From NCBI RefSeq assembly GCF_963921235.1, contig NC_086097.1, positions 102,364,001 to 102,428,000 on the forward strand: 64,000 bases of DNA, written 5' to 3'. The position numbers and the translations under genes were made by a program. Under the pieces are notes generated by a model. That model ran no database searches and was not told the DNA's origin. It saw only the letters and a program-made list of their open reading frames with translations. This DNA comes from Mobula hypostoma. Its lineage: Eukaryota. Shown here piece after piece: positions 8,192-54,836 of this stretch (position 1 is the first letter of the stretch; every line of letters begins with the position of its first letter).

Positions 8192-8745
8192 CAACACACA
8201 CAAAATGTTAGTGGAACGCAGCAGGCAGCATCTATAGGAAGAAGTACAGTCGACGTTTCAGGCCGTAACCCTTTGTCAGGACTAACTGAAAGAAGAGATA
8301 GTAAGAGATTTGAAAGTGGGAGGGGGAGAGGGAGATCTGAAATGATAAGGGAAGACAGGAGGGGGAGGGAAGAAGCTAAGAGCTGGAAAGTTGATTGGCA
8401 AAAGGGATACAGAGTTGGAGAAGGGGGCTCCCCCTTCTTGGCTGTGGAGGCGATCCGGGGAGAAGAAACCCACAAGAATACGTATGGGGTGGTGGGTAGA
8501 TGGAAACTGATGGGGGAGGGTGATCTTAGCTTCTTCCCTCTCCCTCCTGTCTTCTTCTATCATTTTGGATCTCCCCCTCCCCCTTTCAAATCTCTTACTA
8601 TCTCTTCTTTCAGTTAGTCCTGACGAAGGGTCTCGGCCCAAAGCGTCAATTGTACATCTTCCTATAGATGCTGCTTGGCCTGCTGCCTTCACCAGCACTT
8701 TTGTGTGTGTTGCTTGAATTTCCAGCATCTGCAGATTTTCTCATG
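8192..8745 (+). mobile_element. Penelope-type terminal-repeat insertion with inverted arms and 3' tail; two decayed hammerhead motifs
   Basis: 15-bp TSD TTCAAGTTAATCAAA (8177-8191 and 8746-8760); inverted arms ~8192-8381 and ~8524-8712; unpaired tail 8713-8745. Confidence 0.8.
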
Positions 8746-9285
8746 TTCAAGTTAATCAAATATCCCTTTACAAATCTATCCTGACTAACAAATACTTTTA
8801 CAGTTTAAGGTCACTCCATATTTAATTATAGACCATTCATTTCATGTTGCTTTCCTTGTTTATCTCCCACTAAAGAAACATCCTCTCAGCATTTTCCCAG
8901 TCCAGCTTCCCTCAAGATCTTAAAATGTCTCTTTTGGACCTGAAAAATTTACCATCTATGGAAACAGAATAATTATAGTCATGGTACCTGCAATGTTCCT
9001 ATACACCTATTTCACTTCAAACATGGGATTTTGTTACTTCTTGGTGTGATTATTTTCTTTGTTATTTTGTGTAAGTTACTTCTGCTAAGTCCATGGTCCT
9101 AGTTCAATATTAGGTTTCTGGAATTATCAACATCACCTTCCTTTACTGTAACTCTTGATTCAATGTCTGTTTCTGTAAATTTTTAAAAAACGTTTAATGG
9201 GCCCGAATTATGCTGATTCCCCTTTTTTTTTTAATTGCAATTTTAATTATATATTTGAATATTATAACCACCATTTTTGAATGGT

Positions 9286-9889
9286 GTCAAAATGGCTGTG
9301 TGCTATGTCTAGTGTGGTAGTGTAGTGGGTGGTGCTTGTCGCTCTCACTTCCAGCTTCCACCACTGGCTAGTAGTCTTGCGAAAAGGAGAGCAGAATGTG
9401 TAAGTCTCTCCCTGCCGGTACGTAGCCTCTCCAACAGCAAGCCTCATGTCGTGCCTCCTCACTGGCGACACATGGAAACTGAACTCCTTTTGGAAGGGGA
9501 GGAGGTCTGGTCCCTGCACACATATCACGCAGGCCCACCGGTGTGTGGACATACGCTGGTGCTTGTGAACCAGATCCCCAACTGTGGGTAAATAGCCGCA
9601 CTGCCTTGTGGGCAGCCTCGGGAAGGCTACGGGAGTAAACCCAAACAGCAAATCTGGAGTGGAGCCCCTAAGGCAGTTGAACGTCTTTTGAACATCCTTC
9701 CGGCAGCTCATGCAGTCAAGCTGGTGCCAAACGTATTGCTTCATAAGCTTCCCTTTGGGCTACACTGGTGAGGCTGAGCAGGGGATCTTGACGACTGGGC
9801 ATCTCAGGATCTCCATACCTTCCACCCAGGCTTGTGGTGATGATGATCATCACACATTGTCCTTTGAGACAGACGGATGCCAACCACCA
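9286..9889 (+). mobile_element. Non-autonomous retroelement with RTE-like 3' end
   Basis: 16-bp TSD ACCATTTTTGAATGGT (9270-9285 and 9890-9905); GC-rich body; ends ...ttgtcctttgagacagacggatgccaaccacca. Confidence 0.7.
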
Positions 9890-10301
9890 ACCATTTTTGA
9901 ATGGTCCAAAGGAAAACATTGTCTCAAAAATCTTTAATCATACAATTTAAAAATTCTCTTTTGTGTTCAAGTCCCCCTGTGTACTCTACCTCAGTCACCT
10001 CCAGTTCTTCAACCCTCAAACCTCTGTGAGTTACTTGAATAATTGGTTAGATTTGGTTTGTTATGTGTCCAGTCACTGAATTAGAGTGGATTGTTTAATT
10101 TAGATGCAAGTCCTTATGATAAATCCCAGGATTACACATACTATAGTTGGGAATCTGGATGCTTGGAAGGAGGAGCTGAGAATCATACAAAGCATTTGGC
10201 ATAATCCAGACAAGGGAAGGAATTTGAGAAATATTGCTCATCATGTAGAATACATGACAATACTGCAGCACTTGTTTAGAAAAGGTTATTAAAGTACTCA
10301 C

Positions 10302-10406
10302 CCACTGCTATGTAGCACGTGAACAGCAAGACGGGATAATACAGTACGTTGGTCTTAGAGAATACATGGAATGAAAAGTTCGCAAGAGTGAAGAAACCAG
10401 GGCTCT
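10302..10406 (-). CDS. TMEM62: TMEM62 coding exon (equivalent to exon 12)
   Basis: (E)SPGFFTLANFSFHVFSKTNVLYYPVLLFTCYIAV(G). Acceptor ttttccccttcag, donor GTGAGT; 105 nt, phase 1-1. Confidence 0.92.
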
Positions 10407-11390
10407 CTGAAGGGGAAAAGTGATTGAAACTATTTTACAAGAAATTAAACTGATCTTAAATTTTGAGAGAACTTCAAGGAAACAAAGCAGAAGAGTCCAC
10501 TGTGCCAATGGTCAAAACTGTTGCATTAGTCAGTAGCTTTGCACAATACCTTTTCAAGCGTATGTCCAATTCTGCTTTAAAGTTTTTTTTTAATTGAATT
10601 GGCTTCCACCATCTCTTGAGTCAATTCAGTCAATGCCAGGACAGCTGACTGCATTAAAATACACTTCTCTTTCTCTCATCCAACTAGGTTGTTACTGGCA
10701 AGGCAGTGTTTATCATGCACCCAAACTCTGACGAGATGCTGCCACAAACTATTTCAATGCTCATGTTGGAGGCTCAGTGGTAATGCTATCAGGAAGGGTG
10801 CTACAGGACTTCTACCCTGTACTGATGGTACACAACTCGCATCCTCATCCTTTTAAGTGGTAGAAATCCCACACCACATCATAAAATCTTTGGTGAATGC
10901 CTCAGTCTCTAATGGGGTGCCTGTGGTGAGATGATAGTAGATGGAGTGCAATGATGGATGCTTTATGAATAAAAGAAATATAAATAGAAAAAGAGTAGGT
11001 CATATTCAGCCTTACTACACCAATGAATAAGATCATGGCCAATCTTTTATTATGGCCTTTTGTCCCTGCACAAACTTTTGATTCACACAACACCTATTAA
11101 TTGATCTTAAAACTACTTAAAGACTATGTCTGCACAGTCCTCTTGCAATTCCAAAATTGTGTAACCATTTGGACGAAGAAGTTTCTATTTCATCTCTACC
11201 CAAAGAGACTGAAACTTTCTTTTTTCCAAACTGACACCTAGTTCAAGATTTGACCAAAAAGATAACGTCCTTTCTGTATCTATTTTGACAAAATGTCTCA
11301 GGATACAGCACTTCAGTCAAATTGCCTCTTACCTTTCTAATCTTTCTGAAGAGAACATGTCCTTACCAGGTCTAGTAAATTAATTAATTG

Positions 11391-11651
11391 ATTTTTTTTT
11401 TGAGATACAGTGTGGAATAGGCCCTTCAAGCCATGCTGCCTAGCAACCCCCTTGCCTAATCACGGGACAGTTTTACAATGACCAACTAATCTACTAATCT
11501 GTGCATCTTTGGAATGTAGGAGGAAACTGGAGCTCCCAAAGAAAACCCTCCTTTGGGAGAAGGGAGAAGGTACAAACTGCTTACAGATAGCAGTGGGAAT
11601 TGACCCTGGATTGCTGGCACTGTAAAGTGTTGTGTTAACCACTGTGCCACC
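11391..11651 (-). mobile_element. tRNA-derived V-SINE/HE1-like SINE with CR1-type tail
   Basis: Minus strand GGTGGCACAGTGGTTAACAC (A box)...GGGTCAATTCCC (B-box-like)...GCTCCAGTTTCCTCCTACATTCCAAAGA (V-domain-like)...GAAGGGCCTATTCCACACTGTATCTC followed by an A-rich tail. A more decayed + copy lies at ~58750-58970. Confidence 0.7.
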
Positions 11652-12984
11652 CTCCTCTGTGCCCCACCCAATGAGGACTAATGCTGTGCAGACAATACTT
11701 TAAATGTAGCCTGACTACATTTTGTCACATTTTCCCTACTTGTACCTGCACTCTGCAATTCATGACTAGTTGGCAGGATGCAACAAGTATTGTGTGACAG
11801 GGATCAGTGCTGAGAATTCCTACTTCTACATTTTATGCAAATGCATATGGTTGCTACATTTGCAGGTTGCACGGGGATAACTAGTTACTCAAGTTTTACA
11901 GAAGACGTAAGGGACATGGATAGTGCATAGGTATAGATTTAGCAAAGTGAAGATAAAGTAGGAACATATGAAATTGTCCATTTTGAGAGGAAACATTTAA
12001 AAAAAAGGCATAGACCTTTACAGCTGTACAGCAATGGAAACAAGCCTTTCGATTCAATTTATTCAGAGCAACCAAGTCACCGAGCTAAGCTGATCCCATT
12101 TGCTTGTGTTTGGATCATGTCTCTCTAAACCTTTCGTACCTATGATCCTATCCCAATATTTTAAATGTTAGAATTGTACCCTCCTCTATCTTCTGCCAGC
12201 TCAGTTAATAATGTTATTGACAGGCAAAATGAATGTGGAAGGAGCGAGATTATGCTTCATTTCTGCAGGACATTGTTAAGACCACATCAGGCTGTACTAG
12301 TCTTCTTACTTAAGGAAGGTTGTTAATGATTTGGAAATAGTTCAAAGATTAACCAGAAGATTAATAGCTGACTTGCATCACTGTAGTTTTGATGAGTGAG
12401 AGATAACTTGATTGGTCCTGACAGGGTGGATATGATTCTCTGGTGGGAGAATTCAGAACTAGGGGCAAGGCAACGTTACCTCTGAGAGTTGTGAATATTT
12501 GTAATTATCTTCCTTGAGTTGGCCACAAGACAATTTATAAATATTTTTCAAGCAGAAGTAAAAAGATGTTTAATACACGAGAGTGAAGGCTTCCTGTGGT
12601 TGTCAGAAATGCAGGAGTAGAGTGGCCTTATCCCACTCCCAGTTTGTACATTCATGTGATTCAGCCATTCACTAAGGGCGATTCTCCTTTGGTTCTGCTG
12701 TTGCTGCTGCTTTTTATTAGTAGAAATTTTTAAACACTTTCTGCCCTCAATCTACGAGGCTCTGGAAGAGGCACCATTTCGCAGAAAGCACAATTTACTA
12801 ACCTGCAATTTAGCTACTCTGTGTGTGACGTTTGATGTTTTCCTTCGCCCACACAGGCAGATAGAAATATATATGTATATAACACACAGACAGCTTGAGA
12901 AATAACCTAGTGATTTGCCAGTGTAACATCACTGACATCTCACAAGATGCAGTTAGGCTTGTTTTATCACAAGGGATTAAGATA

Positions 12985-13052
12985 CAATACTGTGCAAAAG
13001 TCTTCAGTACATATAATTTAGCTAGGGTGCCTAAGACTTTTGCACAGTACTG
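12985..13052. mobile_element. Tc1-derived miniature inverted-repeat element (a third TIR-like copy at ~13421-13440)
   Basis: CAATACTGTGCAAAAGTCTT (12985-13004) is inverted relative to AAGACTTTTGCACAGTACTG (13033-13052); preceded by TA. Confidence 0.6.
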
Positions 13053-13708
13053 TTTTTGTCAACATGGAGCAAAGAATGTTGGGAATGACGAGGGTGGAGC
13101 ACTGTAGGACAAATGGCAGAGAAGGAGTGTCAAGGTTTGGGGCGACGCAGGTACAAACAGACCCAGCCCTGTGAGTCAAGGTAAAGTCATTTGATTCCAA
13201 GGAACTGGTTTATTGATCATTACAGAATGTCTTTCTGGTACTTCCTGCTCCCTCTCCCCTCCCCTTTTCCCAACCATGATTCCCCTCTTCCTGACCCCTT
13301 CCTGTTCTCAATCCACAATAGAGACTCATATCATAATCTGGTTTATCATCACTCACATATGTCATGAAATTTGCTTATTTTTTTCATGGCAGCAGTGCAG
13401 AGCAATACATAAAATTACTACAGCACTGCACAAAAGTCTTGTGCAATATATTTTATATATACGTTTTTTAAAAACCGGCAATGTTAATTTGCCAAGGTGC
13501 AGAATATGGATCACCTGAAAATATACAGTCATAATTTTAATGACTTGTCTATCTAAGTACATAGCTCACTCAAAACCTATTGTCATCAGCCAGAGGAAGC
13601 CACAGGGAGGAGACATCCTCCATTAGACTGCATTGTTTCCTTCAACATCTCTTCCTCTCTCTCAAATCAACAGAGGTTTTAAATATAACCTGATTATTGA
13701 ACAGAATT

Positions 13709-14820
13709 AGAAACACAGAAAATAGGTGCAGGAGTAGGCCATTCGGCCCTTCGAACCTGCACCACCATTCAGTACGACCATGGCTGATCATCCAACTCAG
13801 AACCCTATACCTGCCTTCCCTCCATACCCCCTGATCCCTTTAGCCACAAGGGCCATATCTAATTCCCTCTTAAATATAGCCAATGAACTGGCCTCAACTG
13901 TTTCCTGTGGCAGAGAATTCCACAGATTCACCATACTCTGTGTGAAGAAGTTTTTCCTCATCTCGGTCCGAAAAGGCTTCCCCTTCATCCTCAAACCCCT
14001 TGTTCTGGACTTCCCCAACATCTGGAATAATCTTCCTGCATCTAGCCTGTCCAATCCCTTTAGAATTTTATATGTTTCAATCAGATCCCCCCTCAATCTT
14101 CTAAATTTCAGAGAGTATAAGCCTAGTCGATCCAGTCTTTCATCATATGAAAGTCCTGCCATCCCAGGAGTCAATTTGGTGAACCTTCTTTGTACCCCCT
14201 CTATGGCAAGAATGTCTTTCCTCAGATTAGGAGACCAAAACTGCACACAATACTCCAGGTGCGGTCTCACCAAGGCAGTAGTACCAGGGAGGTACAACTG
14301 CAGTAGTACCTCCCTGCTCCTGTACTTGAATCCTCTTGCTATGAATGCCAGCATACCATTCGCCTTTTTCACCGCCTGCTGTACCTGCATGCCCACTGTC
14401 AATGACTGGTCTTGTTGCACCTCCCCTTTTCCTAATCGGCCACCATTGAGATAATAATCTGTTTTCCTGTTCTTGCCACCAAAGTGGATAACCTCACATT
14501 TATCTACATTAAATTGCATCTGCCATGAATTTGCCCACTCACCTAACCTATCAAGTCACCCTGCATCCTCTTAGCATCCTCCTCACAGCTAACACTGCTG
14601 CCCAGCTTTGTGTCATCTGCAAACTTGGAGATGTTGCATTTAATTCCCTCGTCTAAGTCATTAATATATATTGTAAACAACTGGGGTCCCAGCACTGAGC
14701 CTTGCAGTATCCCACTAGTCACTGCCTGCCATTCTGAAAAGGTCCCTTTTATTCCCACTCTTTGCTTCCTGTCTGCCAACCAATTCTCTATCCACATTAA
14801 TACCATACCCGCAATACCAA
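13709..14820 (-). mobile_element. CR1 LINE, 5'-truncated, relatively young
   Basis: ORFs 14543-14842 (QGSVLGP, KFADDTKL) and 13797-14519 (240 aa C-terminal ORF2); 3' UTR ends near 13709. Confidence 0.93.
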
Positions 14821-17569: not shown

Positions 17570-19200
17570 ACAAGAACAGAAGAAACAGGAGCAATAGGCC
17601 ATTTGGCCTATTAAGCCTGTTCCACCATTCAGTAAGATCATTGCTGATTTAGACGTGGACTCAGCTCCACAGAACTGCCTTTTCCCCATAATCCTTAATG
17701 CCTCCGCTATGCAAAAATCTAACTGTGTCTTAAGTATATTTAATGAGATGGCCTCTAGTGCTTCCTTGGGCTGAGAATTCCACAGATTCATTAGACTCCG
17801 GGAAAAGCAGTTTCACTTCTCTCCATAAAGTTATAGAAAACTACAGCATAGAAACAGGCCTTTTGGCCCATCTAGTCCATGCTCAGCCATTTAAACAGCC
17901 TACTCCTATCATCCTGCACCAGGGCCATAGCCCTGCATACCCCGACCATCCACGTACCTAGCCAAACTTCTCTTAAACATTGAAATCAAAAACTGCACCC
18001 ACCATCTGCACTGGCTGCTTGTTCCACACTCTCACCACCCTCCGAATGAAAAAGTTTCCCCCATGTTTCCCTTAAACATTTCACCCTTCACCCATAATCC
18101 ATGACCTCTGGTTTTAGCAACACGTAATCGTCGTTTCATGTCTCAGCCTGAAACATCAACCATACTCTTTTCCATAGATGCTGCCTGGCCTGCTGAGTTC
18201 CTCCAGCATTTTCTGTGTGTTTCTTGGATTTCCAGCATCTGCAAATTTTCTCTTGTTTGTGATTTGACCTCTAGTTTGTCTCAGTGGAAAAAGCCTGCTT
18301 ACATTTACCCTATCTATACCCCTCATAATTTTGTATACCTCTGTCAAATCTCCCCTCATGTAACAGGGAGTAAAGACTTAACTCACTCAATCTTTCCTTA
18401 TAACACAGGTCCTCCAGACCTGGCAACATCCTTGTAAACTTTCTCTGCACTCTTTCAACCTTACTTGCATCTTTCTTGAAGGTAGATGACTAAAACGGCA
18501 CATAATTCTCCAAATTGGGCCTCACCAAGTTTTATACAACTTCAACATAAGATCCCATCTCCTGTAGTCAATACACTGATTTACGAAGGCCAATGTGCCA
18601 AAAGCTTTCTTTACAACCCTACCTACCCATAACGCCACTTTCAATGAACTATGGACCTGTAATTCCCAGATCCCTTTGTTCTACTGTATTCCTCAATGCC
18701 CTACCATTCACTGTGTAAGACCTACCCTGGTTGGTTCTCCCAAAGCGCAACACCTCACACACTTGTCTGCATTAAATTCCATCTGTCATTTTCCAGCTGA
18801 TCCAAATCCCACTGCAAGACGTAATAGTCTTTGCTGTCCACTACACCCTCAATTTGGTGTCATCCACAAATTTGCTGGTCCAGTTAACCAGATTATCATC
18901 CAGATCATTGATAAAGATGACAAACAACAAACAGCACCGATCCCTGCAGCACTCCACTAGTCACAGGCTTCCACTCAGAAAGGCAACTCTCCACTACCAC
19001 ACTCTGGCTTCTCCTGCAAATCTAATGTCTAATCCAATTTACTACCTTATCTTAAATGCCGAGCGACTGAACCTTGTAAACCAACCTCCCATGCAGGACC
19101 TTGTCAAATGCCTTGCTGAAATCCATGTAGACAATATCCACTACCTTTCCTTCAATAACTTTCCTTATAACTTCCTTGAAAAATTCTAAGATTGGTTAGA
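17570..19200 (-). mobile_element. Two adjacent CR1 3' fragments (junction ~17830); the second is interrupted by a PLE repeat
   Basis: ORFs 17384-17791 (MNLWNSQP) and 18156-18359 (MRGDLTEVYKIMRGIDRV); RT remnant DFSKAFDKV near 19100-19130. Confidence 0.8.
18115..18264 (+). mobile_element. Penelope-type terminal-repeat fragment inserted in CR1
   Basis: Near-TSD TGACCTCT(G/A)GTTT at 18102-18114 and 18265-18277; body ...cctgaaacatcaac...gatgctgcctggcctgctgagttcctccagc...ccagcatctgca. Another fragment lies at 19201-19290. Confidence 0.7.
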
Positions 19201-19540
19201 TCCTGAAGAAGGTCTTGCCCCAAAAGATCGACTATTTCCGTAGATGCTGCCTGACTTGCTAAGTTCCACCAGCATTGCGTGTGTATTGCATGAGCTTTTA
19301 GTTTGATGCCTTTCTTTTCCCCTCAGTTATTCAAAGCTGGTTCTCCCCATCTTTACTGGTCTTGCTTTTAACTGGCATGGAGTACAGTCATAACCTACAT
19401 TAAGATATTATTCAGGAGCAATTTCAGTTAGTTTTCTAAAGACTGGATTAAATGTCCATTTCAGCACTGATTCATTATTCTTACCCACTATCAGAGTTAC
19501 CCTGTCTCTCAAATGATCTGGTGCAATTTGCATGTCTTTA

Positions 19541-19858
19541 ATACAAAATAATCTGCAGATGCTGGGATCAAAGCAACACTCACAACACGCTGGAGGAACT
19601 CAGCAGGTCGGGCAGCATCTGTGGAAACGATGAGTCAACGTTTCGGGCCGGAACCCTTTGTCAGGACTGAAGAGGGAAGGGGCAGAGGCCCTATAAAGAA
19701 GGTGGGGGAGGGTGGGAAGGAGAAGGCTGGTAGGTCCAGTTGAAAAACCAGTAATTTGAAAGACAAAGGAGTGGGGGAGGGGAAGCAGGGAGGCAATAGG
19801 CAGGAAAGGTGAAGAAGGAATAGGGGAAAACACAATGGATAGTAGAAGGAGGCGGAAC
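19541..19858 (-). mobile_element. Penelope-type terminal-repeat insertion with hammerhead-like motif
   Basis: 10-bp TSD CATGTCTTTA (19531-19540 and 19859-19868); minus strand AGTCCTGACAAAGGGTTCCGGCCCGAAACGTTGACT. Confidence 0.75.
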
Positions 19859-21544: not shown

Positions 21545-23794
21545 TGGCTGGTAAACAAGCAAATGTTCAGGGGATATTTGCGTGGAGTTCTGCATAGGTA
21601 TGTTCCAATGAGAGAAAGAAAGGATGGTAGGGTACAGGAACCGTGGTTTACAAAGGCCGTTATAAATCTAGTTGAGCAGAAAACAAGAGCTTACGAAAGG
21701 TTCAAAGAACTAGGTAATGATAGAGATCTAGAAGATTATAAGGCTAACAAGAAAGGAGCTTGTTCCATGAGAAGGTCTTGACAGACAGAATTAAGGGAAA
21801 CCCCCAAGGCATTGCGAAAAGCAAGAGGATAAGACGTGAGGGAATAGGACCATTCAAGTGTGGCAGTGGAAAATTGTGTATGGAACCGGAGGAGATAGCA
21901 GAGGTACTTAATGAATATTTTGCTTCAGTATTCACTACAGAAAAAGATCTTGGCGATTGTAGGGATGACTTGCAGCGGACTGTAAAGCTTGAGCGTGTAG
22001 ATATTAAGGAAGAGGATGTGCTGGAGCTTTTGCAAAGCGTCAAGTTGGATGAGTCACCGGAAGCAGACGGGATGTACCCCAGGCTACTGTGGGAAGCGAG
22101 GAAGGAGATTACTGAGCCTCTGGCGATGATCAATGGGGATGGGAGAGGCTCCGGTGGATTGGAGGGTTGCAGATGTTGTTCCCTTATTCAAGAAAGGGAG
22201 TAGAGATAGCCCAGGATATTATAGACAAATGAGTCTTACTTCAGTGGTTGATAAGTTGATGGAGAAGACACTGAGAGGCAGGATTTACGAACATTTGGAG
22301 AGGCATTATATGATTATTAGGAATAGTCAGCATGGCTTTGTCAAAGGCAGGTGATGCCTTACGAGCCTGATTGAATTTTTTGAGGATGTACCTAAGCACA
22401 TTGATGAAGGTCGAGCCGTAGATGTAGTGTGTATGGATTTCAGCAAGGCATTTGATAAGGTACCCCATGCAAGGCTTATTGAGAAAGTAAGGAGGCATGG
22501 GATCCAAGGGGACATTGCTTTTTGGATCCAGAATTGGTTTGCCCACAGAAGGCAAAGAGTGGTTGTAGACGGGTCATATTCTGCATGGAGGTCAGTGACC
22601 AGTGGTGTGCCTCAGGGATCTGTTCTGGGACCCTTACTCTTCATGATTTTTATAAATGACCTGGATGAGGAAGTGGAGGGATGGGTTAGTAAGTTTGCTG
22701 ATGACACAAAGGTTGGGGGTATTGTGGATAGTGTGGAGGGCTGTCAAAAGTTTACAGCGGGACATTGATAGGACGCAAAACTGGGCTGAGAAGTGGCAGA
22801 TGGGGTTCAACCCAGATAAGTGTGAAGTGGTTCATTTTGTAGGTCAAATATGATGGCAGAATATAGTAATAATGGTATGACTCTTGGCAGTGTGGAGGAT
22901 CAGAGGGATCTTGGGGTCCGAGTCCATAGGACACTCAAAGCTGCTACGCAGGTTGACTCTGTGGTTAAGAGGGCATACGGTGCATTGGTCTTCATCAACC
23001 ATGGGACTGAGTTTAAGAGCAGAGAGGTAATGTTGTAGCTATATAGGACTCTGGTCAGACCCCACTTGGAGTACTGTGCTCAATTCTGGCTGCCTCACTA
23101 CAGGAAGGACGTGGAAACCATAGAAAGGGTGCAGAGGAGATTTTCAAGGATGTTGCCTGGATTGGGGAGCATGCCTTATGAGAGTAGGTTGAGTGAACTC
23201 GGCCTTTTCTCCTTGGAGCAACAGAAGATGAGAGGTGACCTGATACAGGTGTACAAGATGATGAGAGGCATTGATCGTATGGATAGTCAGAGGCTTTTTC
23301 CCAGGGCTGAAATGGCTAGCATGAGAGGGCACAGTTTCAAGGTGCTTGGAAGTAGGTACAGAGGAGATGTCAGGCTAAGTTTATTTTTTGTTTGTTTGTT
23401 GTTGTTTTTTTTTCACAGAGAGTGGTGAGTGCATGGAATGGGCTGCTGGTGGTGGTGGTGGAGGCGGAAATAGAAACATAGAAAACATACAGCACAATAC
23501 AGGCCCTTCCTCCCACAAAGCTGTGCCGAACATGTCCCTACCTTAGAACTACCTAGGCCTTACCCATAGCCCTCAATTTTTCTAAGCTCCCTGTAGCCAT
23601 CCAGGAGTCTCTTAAAGGACCCTATCATTTCCACCAATGATAGGGTCTTTTAAGAGACTCCTGGATAGGTACATGGAGCTTAGAAAAATAGAAGGCTATG
23701 GGTAACCCTGGTAATTTCTAAGGTAAGGACATGTTTGGCACAGCTTTGTGGGCCGAAGGACCTGTATTGTGCTGTAGGTTTTCTATGTTTCTAT
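21545..23794 (+). mobile_element. CR1 LINE, 5'-truncated, with an antisense 3'-end copy inserted at 23470-23635
   Basis: ORFs 21760-22203, 22427-22768 ([11 protein letters not shown]...PQGSVLGP...KFADDTK), 23066-23428; 3' tail ttctatgtttctatg. Confidence 0.93.
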
Positions 23795-26041
23795 GTTAAC
23801 CTTGGAAATGTGCAGCTCTTTAAATGTAGACAGAGGAAATACTAAATAATCATAAACACCAAGAACAACTAAAAGGCATTGTTGGACTGGCAGTCCATTT
23901 GGTTAGGAATGATAGATTAACTGTACTTGATGCAAGTTAGTATGGGCAGCAGAACTTCATGTGAACTTATCTTTTTGGATGAAGAAGAGTAGGGCTTGTT
24001 TGAATAAAGTTTAGTCCAACTCCAAAGTTGGAAGGATTTGTCAGATCATGGCCACTCTGTACCTCAACTTCACCTTTCTTCATATGCTCTCTCAATAGCC
24101 TTAGCTGACCAATATCTATTGATAAAAAAAGGTGGAAACTAAGTAGATAGAGGGGAGAGAAAAAGAAAGTTGTTATTTCAGAATGAACAAAATTTTTATC
24201 AGAACTGGGGAATATTTTGAAAAATGAAATGTGTTAAGGTGCAGGTCTGGGTGGAGAGATTGGGGCAGAGAGATTAGAGTCCACTTACTGATCTAACCTA
24301 TTCTCTTCATCTCCATTACCAACATTGAGCTTTCCAGTACCTGCTATTTTTATTTCCAGTATTTTAGATTTTAAACACCTCTTGTTCGGTGTCGTACCTT
24401 CAATTCTGCATGAGGATTGGTAATCTTTGAGGGAGAGGGTAACAGCTTCTTTTGTACGAAGCCACTCTTCCTTATTTCGTATCAGTTAGATCTAGATTTA
24501 CAATTCTGTCCTTTTCCTAGATTCTTACAACCAAAGAAATACTTTTCTTATATCCCTTTATCATTTTAAAGATAATAATTCGGGAGTACAGTCTATATAT
24601 ATTGGTCACATGTGCAGTGACTGAGTGTTAGCTGAAAAGATGTTGGAAGTGATGCCCCTTGGGACTGAACATCCTGCTGACACCTGATAATGGGGCAGGG
24701 TCCACTGTTCAGCATAGTGTAACAGGGTGTAAAACAATGACCATTAACTCATTTAAAGATCATGTGACCTGATATTTGCTTTCTTGCTCTTTTCAACAGC
24801 AAACTTATACGTTCACCAACTTTCTGCAAACAGTCTTGCTACAAGCAACTACTTTACAGAACAACTCTGCCAAGTCAGCTGAGTCTCTGGTTGTCTGCAG
24901 TGTTCCCTGCCCTGCTGCACACCTCTAAGGTATAGGCCAGGCACTTTAAAACACCATCAATGTACCACCCTCTGTCTTCACAAAACCTCTCAAACATACT
25001 GGAAGAATGCACTAACCCAACATCAGCTTTGTCTCCCAGGCCAGCCTCCAAAGAATGGAGATGAATTACACAGCCACCTCTGATGGTTGGGCCATGTTAT
25101 TCACACACCCAACACCAGATTCTCCAAACAGATGCTATTCCCAGCTCTGTGACATCAAAAGACGGCCACAGAAACAGTAAAAATGATTAAGGGTGTTTTC
25201 AAAATTTCCTTGAATAAGTGCAACATACTCACCAATTGTGGAAACCTCTGGTTCATGACCACTCAAAATGAAGGAGCATTCAGAATGGCAAATGTCTTTG
25301 TCAGAAGCAGCTAAAAACCCAGTACAATTCATGGATGAGCATCCAACCCACCAAATGAACTACCCACACTCTATCAAGCAGTGTGTCTCAGTCACACATT
25401 GACCTCACCAGCCTCCTCAAAGTCAAAGCAGAAATAAGTCATCCTCGATTATGAGTTCTTATGCTTTTGTTCTACTACATTGTTGCAACAGAGATGAATG
25501 GATGTTCAAGAAATGGCAATTCATTGTTTACTTTAGCAGATTACAACCTGCCAGACTCAATGAGTTTGACAATTTCACATCACATCCATGATCTCCATTT
25601 GCAATCACTCTGCTACCTCCATTTATACTTCCTTTAATCCCACTTCTTGCTTTTGGCCATTTATAGCCCGTCCTTTCCCTTGTGTTGCTTAATGCTGTAT
25701 CCAGTCCTCTCCCAGAACTCAACTTGTTTTTTATTTTTCACTCACTTTTCCTACTTCTAAAAATCCTTGTACTTTCTTTATAAATGCAACACTACTGTAT
25801 ATTCTGCACTGTATTCTTTCATATGTATGGAATGACCAGTCTGAATGGCATGTAAACAAAATCTTTTCATTGTATTTCAGTACACGGGACAAAAATAAAC
25901 CAATACTCACTTTCCACTTCTAATGAAATATTATCTCTACAAATGCTGCCTGACCCACTGAGCATCAGTGTTCTCTCCCATTTCAGAGTTCTTTCTGCTG
26001 TATTTTGCTTTTGGATAGAAGAAAACTATGTATTTTGTTAC

Positions 26042-26654: not shown

Positions 26655-26815
26655 GACGAGAAAATCTGCAGATGCTAGACATCCAAGCAACACACACAAA
26701 ATGCTGAAGGAACTCAGCAGGCCAGGCAGCATCTACAGAAAAGAGTAGAAGTTGATGTTTTGGGCTGACACCCTTCATCAGGTGCTGCCTGGCTTGCTGA
26801 GTTCTTCTAGCATCT
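26655..26815 (-). mobile_element. Penelope-type terminal-repeat fragment with short fold-back
   Basis: atctgcagatgctagacatccaagcaacacac...cccttcatcagg followed by inverted tgctgcctggcttgctgagttcttctagcat. Confidence 0.65.
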
Positions 26816-26819
26816 TATA

Positions 26820-29503: not shown

Positions 29504-32500
29504 TCAGAATCAGGTTTACTATCACTGGCATTTGTCCTGAAACATAGAAACAAAGAAAATAAGTGCAGGAGAAGGCCATTCGGCCCTTCGAACCTGCACC
29601 ACCATTCAGTATGATCATGGCTGATCATCCAACTCAGAACCCTGTACCTGCCTTCTCTCCATACCCCCTGATCCCTTTAGCCACAAGGGCCATATCTAAC
29701 TCCCTCTTAAATATAGCCAATGAACTGGCCTCAACTGTTTCCTATGGCAGAGAATTCCACAGATTCACCACTCTCTGTGTGAAGAAGTTTTTCCTCATCT
29801 CGGTCATAAAAGGCTTCCCCTTTATCCTCAAACTGTGACCCCTCGTTCTGGACCTCCCCAAAAATTGGGAACAATCTTCCTGCATCGAGCCTGTCCGATC
29901 CCTTTAGAATTTTATACGTTTCAATAAGATCCCCCCTCAATCTTCTAAATTCCAGAGAGTTTAAGCCTAGTCAATCCAGTCTTTCATCATATGAAAGTCC
30001 TGCCATCCCAGGAATCAATCTGATGAACCTTCTTCGAACTCCCTCTATGGCAAGAATGTCTTTCCTCAGATTAGGGGACCAAAACTGCACACAATACTCC
30101 AGGTGTGGTCTCACCAAGGCCTTGTACAACTGCAGTAGTACCTCCCTGTTCCTGTACTTGATTCCTCTTGCTATGATCGCCTTTTTCACCGCCTGCTGTA
30201 CCTGCATGCCCACTTTCAATGACTGGTCTTGTTGCACCTCCCCTTTTCCTAATCGGCCACCATTGAGATAATAAGATTTTCCTGTTTTTGCCACCAAAGT
30301 GGATAACCTCACATTTATCCACATTAAATTGCATCTGCCATGAATTTACCCACTCATCTAACCTATCCAAGTCACCCTGCATCCTCTTAGCATCCTCCTC
30401 ACAGCTAACACTGCCGCCCAGCTTCATGTCATCCGCAAATTTGGAGATGCTGCATTTAATTCCCTCGTCTAAGTCATTAATATATATTGTAAACAACTGG
30501 GGTCCCAGCACTAAGCCTTGCGGTACCCCACTAGTCACTGCCTGCCATTCTGAAAAGGTCCTGTTTATTCCCACTCTTTGCTTCCTGTCTGCCAACCAAT
30601 TCTCTATCCACATCAATACCATACCCCCAATACCATGTGCTTTAAGTTTGTACACTAATCTCCTGTGTGGGACCTTGTCAAAAGCCTTTTGAAAATCCAA
30701 ATATACCACATCCACTGGCTCTCCCCTATCTGCTCTACTAGTTACACCCTCAAAAAATTCTATGAGATTCGTCAGACATTATTTTCCTTTCACAAATCCA
30801 CGCTGACTTTGTCCGATGATTTCACCGCCTTCCAAATGTGCTGTTATCACATCTTTGATAACTGACTCTAGTATTTTCCCCACCACTGATGTTAGGCTAA
30901 CCGGTCTATAATTCCCTGGTTTCTCTCTCCCTCCTTTTTTAAAAAGCGGAGTTACATTAGCCACCCTCCAATCCTCCAGAATCTAAAGAGTTTTGAAAAA
31001 TTAACACTAATGCATCCACTATTTCTTGGGCTACTTCCTTAAGCACTCTGGGATGCCGACCATCTGACCCTGGGGATTTATCTGTTTTTAATCCCTTCAA
31101 TTTACCTAACACCACTTCCCTACTAACATGTATTTCCCTCAGTTCCTCCATCTCACTAGACCCCCCGTCCCCTACTATTTCCAGAAGAATATGTATGTCC
31201 TCCTTAGTGAAGACAGAACCAAAGTAGTTATTCAATTGGTCTGCCATATCCTTGTTCCCCATGATCAATTCACCTGTTTCTGACTGTAAGGGACCTACAT
31301 TTGTCTTAACCAATCTTTTTCTTTTCACATATCTATAAAAGCTTTTACAGTCAGTTTTTATGTTCACTGCCAATTTTCTCTCATAATCTTTTTTCCCTTT
31401 CCTAATTAAGCCCTTTGTCCTCCTCTGCTGGACTCTGAATTTCTCCCAGTCCTCAGGTGAGCCGCTTTTTCTGGCTAATTTGTATGTTTTTTCTTTGGAA
31501 TTGATACTATCCCTAATTTCCCTTGTCAGCCACGGGTGCACTACCTTCCCTGGTTTACTCTTTTGCCAGACTGGGATGAACAACTGTTGTAGTTCATCCA
31601 TGCAATCTTTAAATGCTTGCCATTGCATATCCACCGTCAACCCTTTAAGTATCAATTGCCAGTCTATCTGAAATTTGGTGTTTTGCGGCAGCAGTACAAT
31701 GCAATACATAATAATTTAAAAACTATAAATTATAGTAAGAAATACAAAAACTAAATTAAATTAGTGCAAAAAGAGAGCAAAAAAAAAGACAAATATATAG
31801 TGAAGTAGTGTTCATGGGTTCATTGTCCATTCAGAAATCTGATGGCAGAGAGGAAAAAGCTCTTCTCGAGTTTGCGCCTTTCACTTCTGTACCTCCTCCC
31901 CGATGAGGGTCCTGAATGATGGATGCAACCTTTTTGAGGCATCACCATTTGAAGGTGGCCTTGATGCTGGGGAGGCAAGTACTCACAATGGAGCTGGCTG
32001 AGTTTACAACTTTCTGCAGCTTCTTCCAATCACGTGCAGTGGCCCTGCCAAACCAGATGATTATGCAACCAGTCAAATGCTCTCCATGGTACATCTGTAG
32101 AAATTTGGGAGAGTCTGTGGTGACATACAAAGTCTCCTCAAAATCCTAATGAAATACAGCTGCTGTCGTGCCCTCTTTGTAATCGCATCAATAGATCTTC
32201 ATAGATGTTGACACCCAGGAACTTAAAACTGCTCACTTGTTCCACTGCTGATTCCTTGCTGAGGACTGGTGTGTGTTTCCTTGACTTCCCCTTCCTGAAG
32301 TCCACAATCAATTCCTTGGTCTGACTGAAGTTGAGTGCAAGGTTGTTGCAACACCACTCAACCAGCTGATCTATCTCGCTCCTGTACGCCTCCTTGTCAC
32401 CATCCGAAATTCTGAATTCTGCCAATAATGGTTGTGTTATCAGCAAATTCAGAGACAGCATTTGAGCTGTGCTTAGCCACACAGTCATGGATGTAGAGGG

Positions 32501-37565: not shown

Positions 37566-40500
37566 AGACCATAAGACAAAGGAGCAGAAGTCGGCCATTC
37601 GGCCCATCGAGTCTGCTCCGCCATTTTATCATGAGCTGATCCATTCTCCCATTTAGTCCCACTCTCCCGCCTTCTCACCATAACTTTTGATGCCCTGGCT
37701 ACTCAGTTACCTATCAATCTCTGCCTTAAATACACCCAATGACTTGGCCTCCACTGCTGCCCGTGGCAACAAATTCCATAGATTCACCACCCTCTGACTA
37801 AAAAAATTTCTTTACATTTCTGTTCTGAATGGGCGCCCTTCAATCCTTAAGTCATGCCCTCTCGTACTAGACTCCCCCATCATGGGAAACAACTTTGCCA
37901 CATCCACTCTGTCCATGCCTTTCAACATTCGAAATGTTTCTATGAGGTCTCCCCTCATTCTTCTAAACTCCAAGGAATACAGTCCAAGAGCGGACAAACG
38001 TTCCTCATATGTTAACCCTCTCATTCTAGTGAATCTTCTCTGCACCCTCTCCAACGTCAGCACATCCTTTCTTAAATAAGGAGACCAAAACTGCCCACGG
38101 TACTCCAAGTGAGGCCTCACCAGCGCCTTATAGAGCCTCAACATCACATCCCTGCTCCTATATTCTATTCCTCCAGAAATGAATGCCAACATTGCATTCG
38201 CCTTCTTCACTACTGACTCAACCTGGAGGTTAACTTTAAGGGTATCCTGTACGAGGACTCCCAAGTCCCGTTGCATCTCAGAATTTTAAATTCTTTCCCT
38301 ATTTAAATAATAGTCTGCCTGTTTATTTTTTCTGCCAAAGTGCATAACCATACACTTTCCAACATTGTACTTCATTTGCCACTTCTCTGCCCATTCTTCC
38401 AATCTATCCAAGTCTCTCTGCAGACTCTCCGTTTCCTCAGCACTACCGGCCCCTCCACCTATCTTCGTATCGTCAGCAAGCTTAGCCACAAAGCCATCTA
38501 TTCCATAATCCAAATCATTGATGTACAATGTAAAAAGAAGTGGCCCCAACATGGACCCCTGTGGAACACCACTGGTAACCGGCAGCCAACCAGAATAGGA
38601 TCCCTTTATTCCCACTCTCTGTTTCCTGCCAATCAGCCAACGCTCTATCCACGTATGTAACTTTCCCGTAATTCCATGGGCTCTTATCTTGTTAAGTAGC
38701 TTCATGTGTGGCACCTTGTCAAAGGCCTTCTGAAAATCCAAATATACAACATCCACTGCATCTCCCTTGTCTAGCCTACTGGTAATTTCCTCAAAAAATT
38801 GTAATAGGTTTGTCAACACACATCAAAGTTGCTGGTGAACGCAGCAGGCCAGGCGGCATCTCTAGGAAGAGGTACAGTCGACGTTTTAGGCCGAGACCCT
38901 TCGTCAGGACTAACTGAAGGAAGAGTTAGTAAGAGATTTGAAAGTGGGAGGGGGAGATCGAAAATGATAGGAGAAGACAGGAGGGGGAGGGATGGAGCCA
39001 AGAGCTGGACAGGTGATTGGCAAAGGGGATATGAAAGGATCATGGGACAGGAGGTCCGGGGAGAAAGACAAGGGGGGGAACCCAGAGGGGGGCAAGGGGT
39101 ATAGTCAGAGGGACAGAGGGAGAAAAAGGAGAGTGAGAGAAAGAATGTGTGTATAAAAATAAATAACGGATGGGGTACGAGGGGGAAAAAATAAATAACG
39201 GATGGGGTACGAGGGGGTTTGTCAGGCAGGATTTTCCTTTAAGGAATCCATGCTGAGTTCTGCCTATCTTGTCATATGCCTCCAGCTACTCTGTAACCTC
39301 ATCCTTGACAATCGACTCCAACAACTTCCCAACCACCGATGTCAAGCTAACAGGTCTATAATTTCCTTTTTACTTCTTTGCCCCCTTCTTAAATAGCGGA
39401 GTGACATTTGCAATCTTCCAGTCCTCTGGAGCCATGCCACAATCTATCGACTTTTGAAAGATCATCGCAAATGCCTCCGCAATCTCCACAGCTACTTCCT
39501 TCAGAACACGCGGGTGCATTCCATCTGGTCCAGGAGATTTATCTACCTTTAGACTATTCAGCTTCCTGAGTACTTTCTCTGTTGTAATTGTGACTGTGCA
39601 CACTTCTCTTCCCTGCCACCCTTGAGTGTCCGATATACTGCTGATGTCTTCCTCAGTGAAGACTGATGCCAAATACTCGTTCAGTTCCTCTGCCATCTCC
39701 TTAACTCCCATTACAATTTCTCCAGCATCATTTTCTATCGGTCCTATATCTACTCTCACCTGTCTTTTACTCTTTATACACTTGAAAAAGATTTTGGTAT
39801 TCTTTTTGATATTATTTGCTAGCTTCCTTTCATAGTTAATCTTTCCCTCTTAATGACCTTCTTGGTTTCCTTTTGTAAGGTTTTAAAAACTTCCCAATCC
39901 TCTGTCTTCCCACTAATTTTTGCCTCCTTGTATGCCCTGTCCTTTGCTTTAACTTTGGCTTTGACTTCTCGTCAACCACGGTTGCATCCTTTTTCCACTC
40001 GAAAATTTCTTCTTTTTTGGAATATACCTGTCTTGCACATTCCTCACTTCTCGCATAAACTCCAGCCACTGCTGCTCTGCTGACTTTCCCACCAGTGTCC
40101 CTTTCCAGTTAACTTTGGCCAGTTCCTCTATCATGCCACTGTAATTTCCTTTACTCCACTGAAATACTGACACATCAGATTTCGGCTTCTCTTTTTCTAA
40201 TTTCACAGTGAACTCAATCATGTTATAATCACTGCCATCTAAGGGTTCCTTCACCTCAATCTCTCTAATCACCTCCGGTTCATTACACAATACCCAATCC
40301 AGTACAGCCGATCCCCCAGTGGGCTCAACAACAAGCTGTTCTAAAAAGCCATCTCGCAGACATTCTACAAATTCTCTCTCTCTTGAGATCCACTGCCGAC
40401 CTGATTTTCCCAATCCACTCGCATGTTAAAATCCCCCACAATTATCATAACACTGCCCTTTTGACAAGCCTTTTCTATTTCCTGTTGTAATTTGTAGTCC

Positions 40501-49030: not shown

Positions 49031-49193
49031 CACCAAGGTCAATTTGGTCTTCCAAAATCAGTTCACTAATACATAGCTGTAATAATATATTGTAAGAGCA
49101 TAAAAATCTCAGCGATGGACTATTGAAGCAGTGAATCAAGTTCAAAGCTTTTCTGAAGTACAGTCTTAAATTAGTTATTTCAGAGACTCTAAC

Positions 49194-49316: not shown

Positions 49317-49509
49317 CTGTGAAAGAGAGGAAAACTTAATGCAATGAGCTCATACACAGGTATAGTTTGTTCCTCTCCTACCCACCACTCAATCCTTTTA
49401 ACATTTGAATGTTTATAGTGAGAAAAAGGGCATTCAGACCTGGAACCTTGAGGGCACGTCAACTGAATCACGGTGCTCAACCTGTTCACAGTGTACTTCC
49501 CTCAAATAA

Positions 49510-49822
49510 TTAAAAGCATCCGTTAGTCTTGCGAGACCATGGATCTGCATCTGGAAAGTCTTCATTCTCCAGCGCGCAGGCCTGGGCAAGGTTGTATGGA
49601 AGACCAGCAGTTGCCCATGCTGCAAGTCTCCCCTCTCCACGACACTGATATTGTCCAAGGGAAGGGCGTTAGGACCCATACAGCTTGGCACCAGTGTCGT
49701 CGCAGAGCACTGTGTGATTAAGTGCCTTGCTCAAAGACACAACACGCTGCCTCGGCTGGGGCTCGAACTCACAACCTTCAGATCGCTAGTCGAATACCTT
49801 AACCACTTGGCCACGTGCCCAC
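49510..49822 (-). mobile_element. tRNA-derived SINE with RTE-like tail (copy 1)
   Basis: Minus strand GTGGCCAAGTGGTTAAGG (A box), GAGTTCGAGCCC (B box), tail CCATGGTCTCGCAAGACTAACGGATGC followed by TTTAA-type repeats; possible TSD AAATAA. Confidence 0.85.
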
Positions 49823-51360: not shown

Positions 51361-53179
51361 ATGCACCCTGTTCTTCAATATTTATCTGTTTATCCAAGCA
51401 TCTTCAGATGGCCAGCTTTAAGTGCTTACCTGAGAGTTATGCAAATCCTTGTTGCATGACAAAAGTCAGAAATTCTTGAGGAATGAAGCATTGGAATAAC
51501 GGGCTGCTTTATTGCAATGTCTAAACTTTAAATTATGAGTATTGAGAGAAGGAACTGAAGGAATGTGAAGCTATGTCGCAGTACAAGTCAGCACCTTCAG
51601 TACATGAGCAAAGGAGAGATTAGGCAAGAAAAAAAAAATCTGATTCCTGAAACAATAGAGACCATTTGGGCCATTGTGACCAAGTTACATCTTTGAAGGA
51701 GATTAGTTCAATTCCCAGATTAAAATGTGTGGCTTTTTTCTGGAATATCTCTTAGTTTGTACAATTAAGAACTGGAATATTTTAAGGCAGAGGTGTAGCT
51801 TGCCAGCATTTGATTGCAACTCAGAGCAATAGAACTGTGATGAAGCTTGTAAGAAGGCAATGGAACATTGGAGATGATACCAAGTAAACATTATTTTTCA
51901 AGCTCCTTAGAAAGTCACACAATATACGAATGAACAGAAGCAGACAATATGGCCCTTGGATTCGGCTCTGCTATTCAAAGTAAATTTATTACCAAAGTAC
52001 ATACACGTCACCATGTACAACCCTGAAATTTATTTTCTGGTGGGCATTCACAGTAAATACAAAAAAATACAACACAATCAATGAAAAACTGCATACAAAG
52101 GTGGACAAACAACCAATGTGCAAAAGACAACAAGTTGTCCAAATACATAAAGAAAAATCAAAATAATAAAAAATAAATACTGAGAACATGAGTTGTAGTC
52201 CTTGAAAATGAGTCCATAGGTTGTGGAATCAGCTCAGTGTTGGAGTGAGTGAAGTTATCCACACTAGTTCAGGAGTCTAATTGTTGAGGGGTAATAAGTG
52301 TTCCTGAACCTGGTGGTGTGGGTCCTGAGGCTCCTGTACCTTCTTCCTGTTGCAGCAGTGAGAAAAAAAAGCAAAGCATGTCCTGGATGGTGGGGGTCCT
52401 TGATGATGAATGCAGCTTTCCTGTGACAGTGCTCCATTTAGATATGCTCAATAATGGGAAGGGCTTTACCCATGATGGACTGGGCAGTCTTCACTACCTT
52501 TTGTTGGCTTTCCTCTGCAAGGGCATTGATGTTTCCATACCTGGCCATGATACAACCAATCAGTATACTCTCCACCGTACACCTTCAAAAGTTTAAAGAG
52601 GTTTGTCAAAGTTTTAAATGGCATGCCAAATCTTTGCAAACTTCTGAGAAAGTAGGAGCGCTGCTGTGTTTTCTTTGTAATGGTACTTATCTACTAGACC
52701 CAGAACACTTCCTCTGAAATGATAACACTGAGGAATTTAAAGTGGCTGACACTCTCCACCTTTGATTCCCTAATAAGTACTAGATTCAGGGACCTCTGAT
52801 TTCCTCCTCCTGTAATCAATAAACAGCTCTCTGGCTTTGCAAATGTTGATTGAGAGGTTGTTGTTGTGGTACCACTCAGCCAGATTTTCAATCTTCCTCC
52901 TTTACGCTGTTTTGTCACCACCTTTGATTCAGCCAACAACAGTGGTGCTGTCAGCAAAAGGTAATTATGGCATTAACCTCGCAGTCATAAGTAAAAAGTG
53001 AGTAGAACAGGGGGCTAAGCACACAGCCTTGTGGTGCTTCGTGCTGATGCTGACTGTGGAAGAGATGCTGCTGCCAATCTGAACTGACTGGGGTCTGCAA
53101 GTGAGGAAATTGAGGATCCAGTTGCACAAGGAGGTATTAATCATAGGTCTTGCAGCTTACTGATTAGCTTTGAGGGGAT

Positions 53180-53423
53180 CAACACAAACAACAGGAATCC
53201 TGCAGATGCTGGAAATTCAAGCAACACACATCAAAGTTGCTGGTGAACGCAGCAGGCCAGGCAGCATCTCTAGGAAGAGGTACATTCGACATTTCAGGTC
53301 GAGACCCTTCATCAGGTTCGTTGGTTGAGTCCTGATGAAGGGTCTCGGCCTGAAACATCGACTGTACCTCTTCCTAGAGATGCTGCCTGGCCTGCTGCAT
53401 TCACCAGCAACTTTAATGTGTGG
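53180..53423 (-). mobile_element. Penelope-type fold-back mini-element with two hammerhead motifs
   Basis: 14-bp TSD AGCTTTGAGGGGAT (53166-53179 and 53424-53437); ~92-bp inverted arms 53225-53316 and 53331-53422; 14-nt loop; ~45-bp tail 53180-53224. Confidence 0.85.
53328..53363 (+). ncRNA. Minimal type I hammerhead-ribozyme motif (best-preserved copy in the window)
   Basis: AGTC-CTGATGA-AGGGTCTCGGCCT-GAAA-C-ATC-GACT: stem I AGTC/GACT, core CUGAUGA (53332-53338) and GAAA (53352-53355), short stem II, no stem III loop. One mismatch relative to the inferred consensus GAAACGTC. Confidence 0.6.
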
Positions 53424-54617
53424 AGCTTTGAGGGGATGATAGTTTTGAATGCAGAGCTACAGTCAAGAACACCCTGATATATGCATCTTCACTGCCCGGA
53501 TGTTCCAGGATTGAGTGAAGAGCCTATGAAATGGCATCTACTGTTGACCCGTTGTGATGGTAAGCAAAAAGTGCAGATCGAAGTCACCCTTCAGACAGGA
53601 GTTGATATATTTCATCGTCACCCTCTAAAAGCATTTCTCAGTGCTTTACTGTAAGTGCTACTGGACAACTGTCACTGAGGCAGGGTACCACACTCTTCTT
53701 CAAGTTCAATTTATCGTCATTCAACTGTACACATGTAAACCTCCAAACATTCCTCTGGACTAAGATGTACAACACAAAGTAATGTTACCATAAATAATAA
53801 GATGCAGTTATGACACAAGTTAAAAAGTAAACAGTATGTGATGAGACCCGGGTGTTGGCAGGGAGTTCAGTAGTCTTACAGCCTGCGGAAAGCAGCTGTT
53901 TTTCATTCTAACATTTTCTGTCCTAATGCTACAATATCTCCTGACTGATGGTGGAGTGGGGAGAAGGGGGTTAACAGAATTGTTGGATGGATGAGAGGGA
54001 TTATTGACAATACTAAGGGTCCTGGTATCTTGGATGGGTACAAGAGAGTCCTTCTCAGCAATCCTCACAATCCCCTGATGCTTTGCAATTCCTACATCAC
54101 AAGGTGATGCAGCTCTTCAGGACAATCTTGATAGTGCTCCTGTAAAAATTGGTTGGTGGGGGGGAGGGGAGAGGGAGACTCGCTCACCTCAACCTCCTCA
54201 AGAAGCGGAGACACTGCGGTGTGTTTTGACCGACGAGGTGGTGTCGAGGGATCAGATAATATCATCCACTATGTGCACTCCTAGAAACTTGGTGCTCTTA
54301 GCTCTCTCCACAGAGAAGCCATTTATGTGCAGTGAGCACTCTCCTGAAGTCCATAATCATCACTTTAGTCTTATCCACATTGTGACTCAGGTTGTTGTGC
54401 TCACACCATTCCACCACCCGCTCTCCCTTCTCTCTGTACAGCGTCTCGTCACCATTGTCGATGAGGCCAACCACTGTGCATCAGCAGCAAACTCGATGAT
54501 TCAGTTTGAACCTGATCTCGCAGTACAGAAATGTGTCAACAGCAGTGGGCTAGAGATGTTTCTGCCAACACAGACTGGCTGTGGCTGCCGCTGTAGGAGC
54601 CATGCATCTGTTCTCTA

Positions 54618-54836
54618 ATTTGAGAAGATCTGCAGATGCTGGAAATCAAAAGCAACATACACACAAAGTGCTAGAGGAACTCAGCAGATCAGGCAGCATC
54701 TATGGAAAAGAGTAAACAGTTGACATTTTGGGCCAACACCCTTCATCAGGACTCAGCCTTGGCCCAAAACGTCAATTATTTATTCTTTTCCATAGATGCT
54801 GCCTGACCTATTGAGTTCCTCCAGCATTCTGTGTGT
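54618..54836 (-). mobile_element. Older Penelope-type fold-back mini-element
   Basis: Inverted arms ~54660-54737 and ~54758-54836; degenerate TSD TGCAT(C/G)TGTT(C/T)TCTA (54603-54617 and 54837-54851, 13/15 match). Confidence 0.7.

Follow-up and report, generated by a model that had tools for sequence, protein, structure and literature searches.

Short hammerhead-bearing insertions in a 64-kb stretch of the ray Mobula hypostoma are probably truncated ends of a Penelope-like element

We analyzed a stretch of 64,000 nucleotides (nt) from the ray Mobula hypostoma (NC_086097.1 of assembly GCF_963921235.1, positions 102,364,001-102,428,000, forward strand), referred to here as the window, in which an earlier note had listed eight insertions with one common terminal repeat and a hammerhead ribozyme motif. 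Our data indicate that these loci are likely 5'-truncated pseudo-long terminal repeat (pLTR) ends, that is, the products of failed insertion by several subfamilies of an endonuclease-bearing (EN+) Penelope-like element (PLE) that is ordinary, very abundant, and most likely of the Neptune clade. The simplest reading, which we hold with good confidence, is that they are abortive cis-products of autonomous elements. The earlier note had interpreted them as a non-autonomous, retrozyme-like PLE derivative that is mobilised in trans. A separate family of this kind is not supported, since the copies differ in length, lack a shared internal body, belong to at least three subfamilies by their 3' untranslated region (UTR), form no tandem, and carry a repeat that is attached to PLE coding sequence.

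The window (GC content 41.7%) is vertebrate DNA rich in repeats, among which are remnants that we take, from their translations, to be CR1-like, L1-like, Tc1-like, and others. We found that the terminal repeat is present at all eight coordinates (8192, 18115, 19201, 19541, 26655, 38816, 53180, and 54618), as the earlier note had claimed, with the count corrected to 12 arms; four loci (8192, 26655, 53180, and 54618) are each an inverted pair. A search profile built from 11 arms (nhmmer) recovers the eight loci with E-values from 1e-37 to 6e-20. Outside its building set, the profile matches 2053-2167 (E 2.6e-9), 26769-26819 (E 2.4e-7), and 25932-25962 (E 0.004); the last is a 31-nt scrap of the terminal repeat and probably a very old tenth copy. 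Target-site duplications (TSDs) of 9-15 bp flank six of the eight loci, two of them imperfectly, which agrees with the six described before: 15 of 15 letters match at 8192, 12 of 13 at 18115, 10 of 10 at 19541, 9 of 9 at 38816, 14 of 14 at 53180, and 13 of 15 at 54618. Compared with 300 random window pairs per locus, each of these six scores is equalled by at most one pair, while no TSD was found at 19201 and 26655, where 55 and 86% of the random pairs, respectively, scored as high. An empty site supports the duplication at 38816: ten contigs of sequencing run X1, which come from other copies of the host long interspersed nuclear element (LINE), join 38806 directly to 39216 and hold the 9-letter target once. 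These data support the view of the earlier note that the insertions carry a Penelope-type terminal repeat and were retrotransposed as TSD-flanked units.

We asked whether the ends of the arms follow the layout of a pLTR with an optional tail of 30-40 nt at one end. The 3' ends of nine arms, measured from position C3 of the hammerhead, form two classes: four arms end at +86 to +91 and five at +123 to +135. In all four inverted pairs the long 3' end, a tail of approximately 30-45 nt, is found on one arm only. The 5' ends range from +42 to -308 relative to C3. Insert length varies from about 90 to 555 bp, the 3'UTR also differs between copies, and identity of the terminal repeat between arms is 65-93%. 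With such scattered 5' ends and three UTR types, the loci do not have a common 5' end or an internal body detached from the open reading frame (ORF), and no head-to-tail tandem of the repeat unit occurs within the window.

The repeat is connected to PLE coding sequence by a ninth copy (152-2167), missed by the earlier note, in which reverse transcriptase (RT) remnants, an ORF end, a UTR, a decayed hammerhead, and a tail lie on one strand (+). A remnant of the RT palm/thumb boundary (152..218) is read in two overlapping frames (...KFHP and ...CPFLHL), separated by a small deletion. It is followed at a TA by a Tc1/mariner-type transposon (217..1634, +) with terminal inverted repeats that match at 27 of 28 nt, TA included, and a transposase remnant at 649-1296 (a 215-codon frame), from whose sequence we presume the Tc1 label. 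Beyond the transposon, collinear with the left piece, lies an RT thumb remnant (1634..1720, with KLTDSHCYL at 1676-1702), which a large internal deletion joins to an ORF C-terminus (1731..1784, NIEFSNFK-stop at 1758-1784); a pyrimidine-rich 3'UTR with the decayed hammerhead (approximately 2053-2088) and the terminal repeat with tail completes the copy (1785..2167). Since the Tc1-type element is nested within it, the PLE copy is the older of the two. The window contains the KLTDSHCYL and NIEFSNFK motifs once each, and 40 shuffled versions contain neither. Aligned by eye to the Neptune1_Ap row of the PMC8557442 supplement, the pieces are identical at 5 of 10, 5 of 15, and 13 of 27 residues in the right order, or 23 of 52 in total and collinear across the Tc1 insertion, an identity to which no tool assigned an E-value. 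The ORF end is weakly like that of Neptune1_Ap, also by eye, and the remnants match Neptune better than the Nematis rows; judging from these residues, the Neptune label is likely. We saw no GIY-YIG motif in the copy, of whose ORF end only the last residues are present. This copy, the only coding one, has also lost the region between RT and EN in which Neptune and Nematis have a characteristic Zn-finger-like linker. Our six-frame coding scan covered short motifs and may therefore have missed weak PLE remnants in other parts of the window.

Read-derived contigs extend this connection. Twenty-three contigs of run X13 extend beyond 39186 (agreement 0.82), and 30 of their letters read DFSNFR-stop on the sense strand, the same ending as NIEFSNFK-stop in the ninth copy. 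The repeat is therefore found next to coding remnants in the window and next to an ORF end in contigs, contrary to the possibility raised by the earlier note that it is never attached to PLE coding sequence. Likewise, the statement that none of the copies encodes RT is true of the eight listed ones, according to the ORF list, and fails for the ninth, which holds RT remnants. In run X1 the summed depth over the far UTR (39102-39173) is 45% of that over the terminal module, and although depth is no copy number, this suggests that long UTR-bearing copies are common; the same ratio is 15% in X13 and 8% in X12, where low coverage could explain the steeper drop. The family seems very abundant, as 110,915 contigs of one DNA run align to a 511-nt stretch, a figure which is not a copy number.

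Translated pieces of the repeat also turn up in databases of predicted proteins. One predicted protein of Mobula birostris includes the translation of the repeat (82% identity to a 46-residue query, of which 72% is aligned). A spurious 123-residue UTR frame used as query matched three proteins, two of them gene models that hold the repeat and one of low complexity, and gave no link to a PLE ORF. Three predicted proteins (P0001, P0002, and P0004), one of which is named bifunctional coenzyme A synthase in Mobula birostris, contain a translated piece of the terminal repeat, by exonisation or through gene-model error.

With CpGs restored, the consensus of eight arms (alignment A3) reproduces the 36-nt hammerhead consensus of the earlier note (AGTC-CTGAYGA...GAAAC-GTC-GACT). 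It consists, in order, of a 4-bp stem I, CUGAYGA, an extra A after A9, a 4-bp stem II that is opened by G10.1 and holds a tetraloop, GAAA, and CGUC, which gives the palindrome ACGU; there is no helix III. Published minimal hammerheads of PLEs have an extra nucleotide between 9 and 10.1, a G10.1-C11.1 pair, and a palindromic 15.2-16.2, and they act as dimers with low in vitro activity (Cervera and De la Pena 2014, PMC4209133). The consensus contains the minimal type I core, the extra base between N9 and 10.1, helices I and II, and the palindromic 15.2-16.2; on its letters, we identify it as the known minimal PLE motif, with ACGU available for a predicted dimer, as the earlier note had described it.

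No intact core is found among the eight scored arms, from which 18115, 19201, and the right arm of 54618 were left out (the first and last of these lack the CUGANGA box). Of 12 core differences, 10 are clear CpG transitions. The description of the core defects as mostly CpG-type is borne out by this count, except for TAAAA of 38816, since U at 11.1 is the majority allele in X1 (63%). CpG decay is neutral change after insertion and by itself holds no information on past cleavage activity; decay of the inserted copies is thus retained from the earlier note, and the once-active ribozyme does not follow from it. Read-derived contigs of X1, X12, and X13 have an intact hammerhead by their majority alleles. 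In X1, the best-matching DNA run, which contains 80% of query words and may come from a species other than that of the window, G12 accounts for 87% of the summed depth, variants at the CpG positions C15.2, G16.2, C17, and G1.1 make up 10-13%, and N7 is C or U (figures from 40 of 51 variants). The share of CpG variants is 3-5% in contigs of X12 and X13, runs only guessed to be RNA, a difference from X1 that low coverage could explain; neither run was taken as evidence of expression.

The individual loci show how these parts are combined; the four inverted pairs as wholes are assigned to neither strand. The pair at 8192..8745 (TSD 8177-8191/8746-8760) has its 3' ends outward, with a left arm (-) that has the short end and a hammerhead at 8248-8283 (G8>A) and a right arm (8524-8745, +) with the tail and a hammerhead at 8616-8651 (G12>A and A15.1>G). 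Its centre, 8410-8523, is UTR-like in patches only and without clear match to the other UTRs, and may be the UTR of another subfamily or a rearranged junction. At 26655..26819, which has no TSD, the left arm (-) carries the tail and ends 1 nt before C3, and the right arm (26769-26819) is short and without hammerhead. An 11-nt linker separates the arms at 53180..53423 (TSD 53166-53179/53424-53437), where the left arm (-) has the tail and ends 1 nt before C3 and the right arm (+) runs from stem I (53328) to a short end. At 54618..54836 (TSD 54603-54617/54837-54851) the left arm (-) has the tail and ends at stem I, and the right arm (+) starts from stem II and has the short end. The remaining loci count as one arm each. 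The arm with tail at 18115..18264 (+, TSD 18102-18114/18265-18277) starts inside stem II (approximately 18140), without CUGANGA, and its first 25 nt are probably a collapsed inverted arm, which would make it a fifth inverted case. The decayed arm at 19201..19289 (+) begins 2 nt before C3, has a short 3' end, and lacks a TSD, while the arm with tail at 19541..19858 (-, TSD 19531-19540/19859-19868) contains approximately 190 nt of the 3'UTR of another subfamily and a hammerhead at 19633-19668 (-, G8>A and C17>U). The arm with short 3' end at 38816..39215 (-, TSD 38807-38815/39216-39224) lies in a CR1-like LINE, contains approximately 300 nt of 3'UTR that extends to just before the ORF stop, has a hammerhead at 38876-38911 (-, G12>A), and carries a 32-bp tandem duplication at its 5' end.

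These shapes are familiar from other animals. PLE inserts are recognised by an inverted copy that is truncated at its 5' end and by a tail of 30-40 bp on one side (PMC8557442), and rotifer examples have TSDs of 8-10 bp (PMC3846280). The ray loci share with EN+ PLEs (Penelope/Poseidon, Neptune, and Nematis; PMC3846280, PMC8557442) the abutting inverted pLTR 5' ends, the tail of 30-40 nt on one arm, TSDs of approximately 8-15 bp, strong 5' truncation, and internal deletions; they differ in that most inserts are pLTR ends alone (90-555 bp), none in the window is full-length, and the 5' ends cluster at the hammerhead. Most PLE insertions are described as 5'-truncated with one terminal repeat (bioRxiv 10.64898/2026.07.22.740005). 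As in the minimal hammerheads of metazoan PLEs (PMC4209133), the ray motif combines CUGANGA and GAAA boxes with a 4-bp helix I and no helix III and is mostly found singly or on opposite strands; in that paper, single and opposite-strand motifs 100-700 bp apart are regarded as probably truncated PLEs. Helix II has 4 bp in the ray compared to 7-8 bp in Schistosoma families, position 11.1 is often U, and the searchable part of that paper's supplement contains no shark or skate entry. In PAc, a Poseidon element of Anolis carolinensis (Frangieh et al. 2024, PMC11167929), RT starts at two internal sites, the stretch between them forms the tail, and insertion in vitro is independent of hammerhead cleavage; both the two start sites downstream of the hammerhead and an uncleaved RNA template fit the ray loci. 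The PAc ORF begins at stem II; no ORF start was found for the ray family.

We propose the following course of insertion for such an element, in part by analogy with published PLEs. The loci are bounded by TSDs, and the element's GIY-YIG/RT protein would be the enzyme that nicks the target and primes synthesis there. The two classes of 3' ends would arise if complementary DNA (cDNA) starts inside the element's own RNA, at two sites approximately 35-45 nt apart downstream of the hammerhead, by the mechanism put forward for PAc (PMC11167929). Copying would pass through an uncut or religated hammerhead and usually stop early; uncut or religated passage is suggested because the GUC/GAC cut site is not the start of any arm, and hammerheads are kept across that site. 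Inverted joining is seen directly: the 5' end of a second, inverted copy often abuts that of the first, and only one of the two arms has the tail. Decay at CpGs after insertion then leaves no scored arm in the window with an intact core.

Several results weigh against this interpretation. We obtained no full-length element or intact ORF, and queries of 40 and 50 residues from the coding remnant had no match in Pfam, PDB, Atlas, or two protein searches. Exact pattern scans for relatives gave no match in three viral, three prokaryote-genome, and two metagenome scans. The ORF-end evidence from contigs amounts to six codons in one run among those listed, and depth in X12 and X13 drops 5-8-fold upstream of the hammerhead. 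The ninth copy has lost most of its endonuclease region, and therefore deletion derivatives exist. Furthermore, the 5' ends cluster more than smooth truncation would give if the mean length is 100 nt or above, though not if it is 60 nt: at five of nine loci, the 5' end or inversion junction lies at -4 to +13 from C3, an 18-nt zone in the upstream half of the hammerhead. The probability of five of nine ends in any 18-nt zone under exponential truncation is 0.18, 0.046, 0.005, and 0.0004 at means of 60, 100, 200, and 400 nt, respectively, for a zone that was picked after seeing the data and for nine loci only.

This clustering raises the possibility, which we regard as tentative, that the shortest copies are cDNAs which ran off the template at a fixed RNA 5' end, the start or splice site of the transcript then lying immediately upstream of stem I; such a model would refine rather than replace the interpretation of the loci as truncated PLE ends. 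Similarly tentative is the idea that short insertions bounded by the hammerhead record the in vivo template, with priming at the tail of the upstream pLTR, run-off at the RNA 5' end, and an uncut ribozyme. A pyrimidine tract and AG stand directly before stem I in all three aligned UTR types. In the Penelope element of D. virilis, the 3' end of an intron maps to the 5' end of helix I (PMC4209133) and the intron begins 46 bp downstream of the transcription start (PMC2377424). The PAc RT, which starts inside the RNA downstream of the hammerhead, accepts unprocessed RNA as template in vitro (PMC11167929). However, the ends spread over 18 nt rather than one base, no common upstream exon is evident, the clustering is unremarkable at a mean truncation length of 60 nt, and fold-back at AGTC/GACT or at the inverted repeats of stem II could produce it too. 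As a separate observation, the bases just 5' of stem I are alike in three short copies (53317-53327, 19190-19200, and 54754-54757), with GGTTG, GGTTAG, and GGCTG before AGTCC/ATCC, by chance or as the remnant of a short upstream exon. A perfect TACTAAC branch-point match upstream of the 38816 hammerhead was set aside, as its key A varies (55% other letters at 38926 in X1).

That short RNAs of an independent, retrozyme-like family were copied in trans by PLE proteins, as the earlier note proposed, appears improbable to us. The eight listed copies have no ORF, many are 90-250 bp long with similar 5' ends, pLTRs can act in trans (PMC3846280), and pLTR-related retrozyme monomers have been reported from vertebrates, among them one chondrichthyan (bioRxiv 10.64898/2026.07.22.740005). 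Metazoan non-LTR retrozymes also resemble the ray copies in being non-coding and pLTR-related, with a type I hammerhead and TSDs longer than 4 bp (PMC7229834). Yet their defining trait is the head-to-tail tandem of a fixed monomer (PMC7229834; bioRxiv 10.64898/2026.07.22.740005), and neither tandems, nor the mostly canonical hammerheads, nor the circles of retrozymes were seen at the ray loci: the hammerhead is minimal, the short copies come from different subfamilies, and the repeat is continuous with the UTR and the ORF end. Less probable still is a chance reading of the hammerhead in the tail of an unrelated short interspersed nuclear element (SINE) or LINE, or in a miniature inverted-repeat transposable element (MITE). 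Two checks came out negative and would fit such a reading: at E<=1, Rfam gave no hammerhead, its eight matches all being hairpin look-alikes below the gathering score, and none of eight stem pairs shows a two-sided (compensatory) change in the shallow sample of eight arms. The minimum-energy fold of the monomer is another hairpin (-14.1 vs -8.7 kcal/mol), and neither single-arm folding nor plain cofolding produced the dimer, which a nested model cannot represent. Against chance, all published features occur in order, stem II is 100% paired in the eight arms although its loop varies, TSDs differ in length, and Neptune-like coding remnants lie upstream of the motif. We rejected a MITE in view of the variable TSD length and the unequal inverted arms.

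The window also contains other repeats. CR1-like remnants predominate and are the hosts of the insertions at 38816 and 19201; young CR1-like LINE 3' ends, 92-96% alike, lie at 13708-14819 and 29545-30635. Two long inverted repeats, at 62729-62966 (109 nt with a 20-nt gap) and 23470-23794 (88 nt with a 149-nt gap), are MITE-like and unrelated to the PLE repeat, and a Tigger-like frame is found at 62236-62739. Copies of a 307-nt SINE-like repeat, 90% alike and in opposite orientation, occupy 49508-49814 and 58135-58441.

The element type, the ribozyme, and the insertion shapes have all been described before, and 5'-truncated pLTR ends of Neptune-type PLEs are a pattern published in 2013-2014. 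Among the open-licence papers to which our literature search was limited, we found none on this PLE family in rays or cartilaginous fishes. Our data add a ray to the animals with genomes full of truncated PLE ends that bear minimal hammerheads, and such an abundant family is a good data set for mapping the start and stop sites of PLE cDNA. If the 5' ends truly peak just upstream of an uncut hammerhead, this would constrain the in vivo role of the ribozyme. Were the copies indeed run-off products, thousands of them would map the 5' end of the RNA and demonstrate that insertion in vivo proceeds without hammerhead cleavage.

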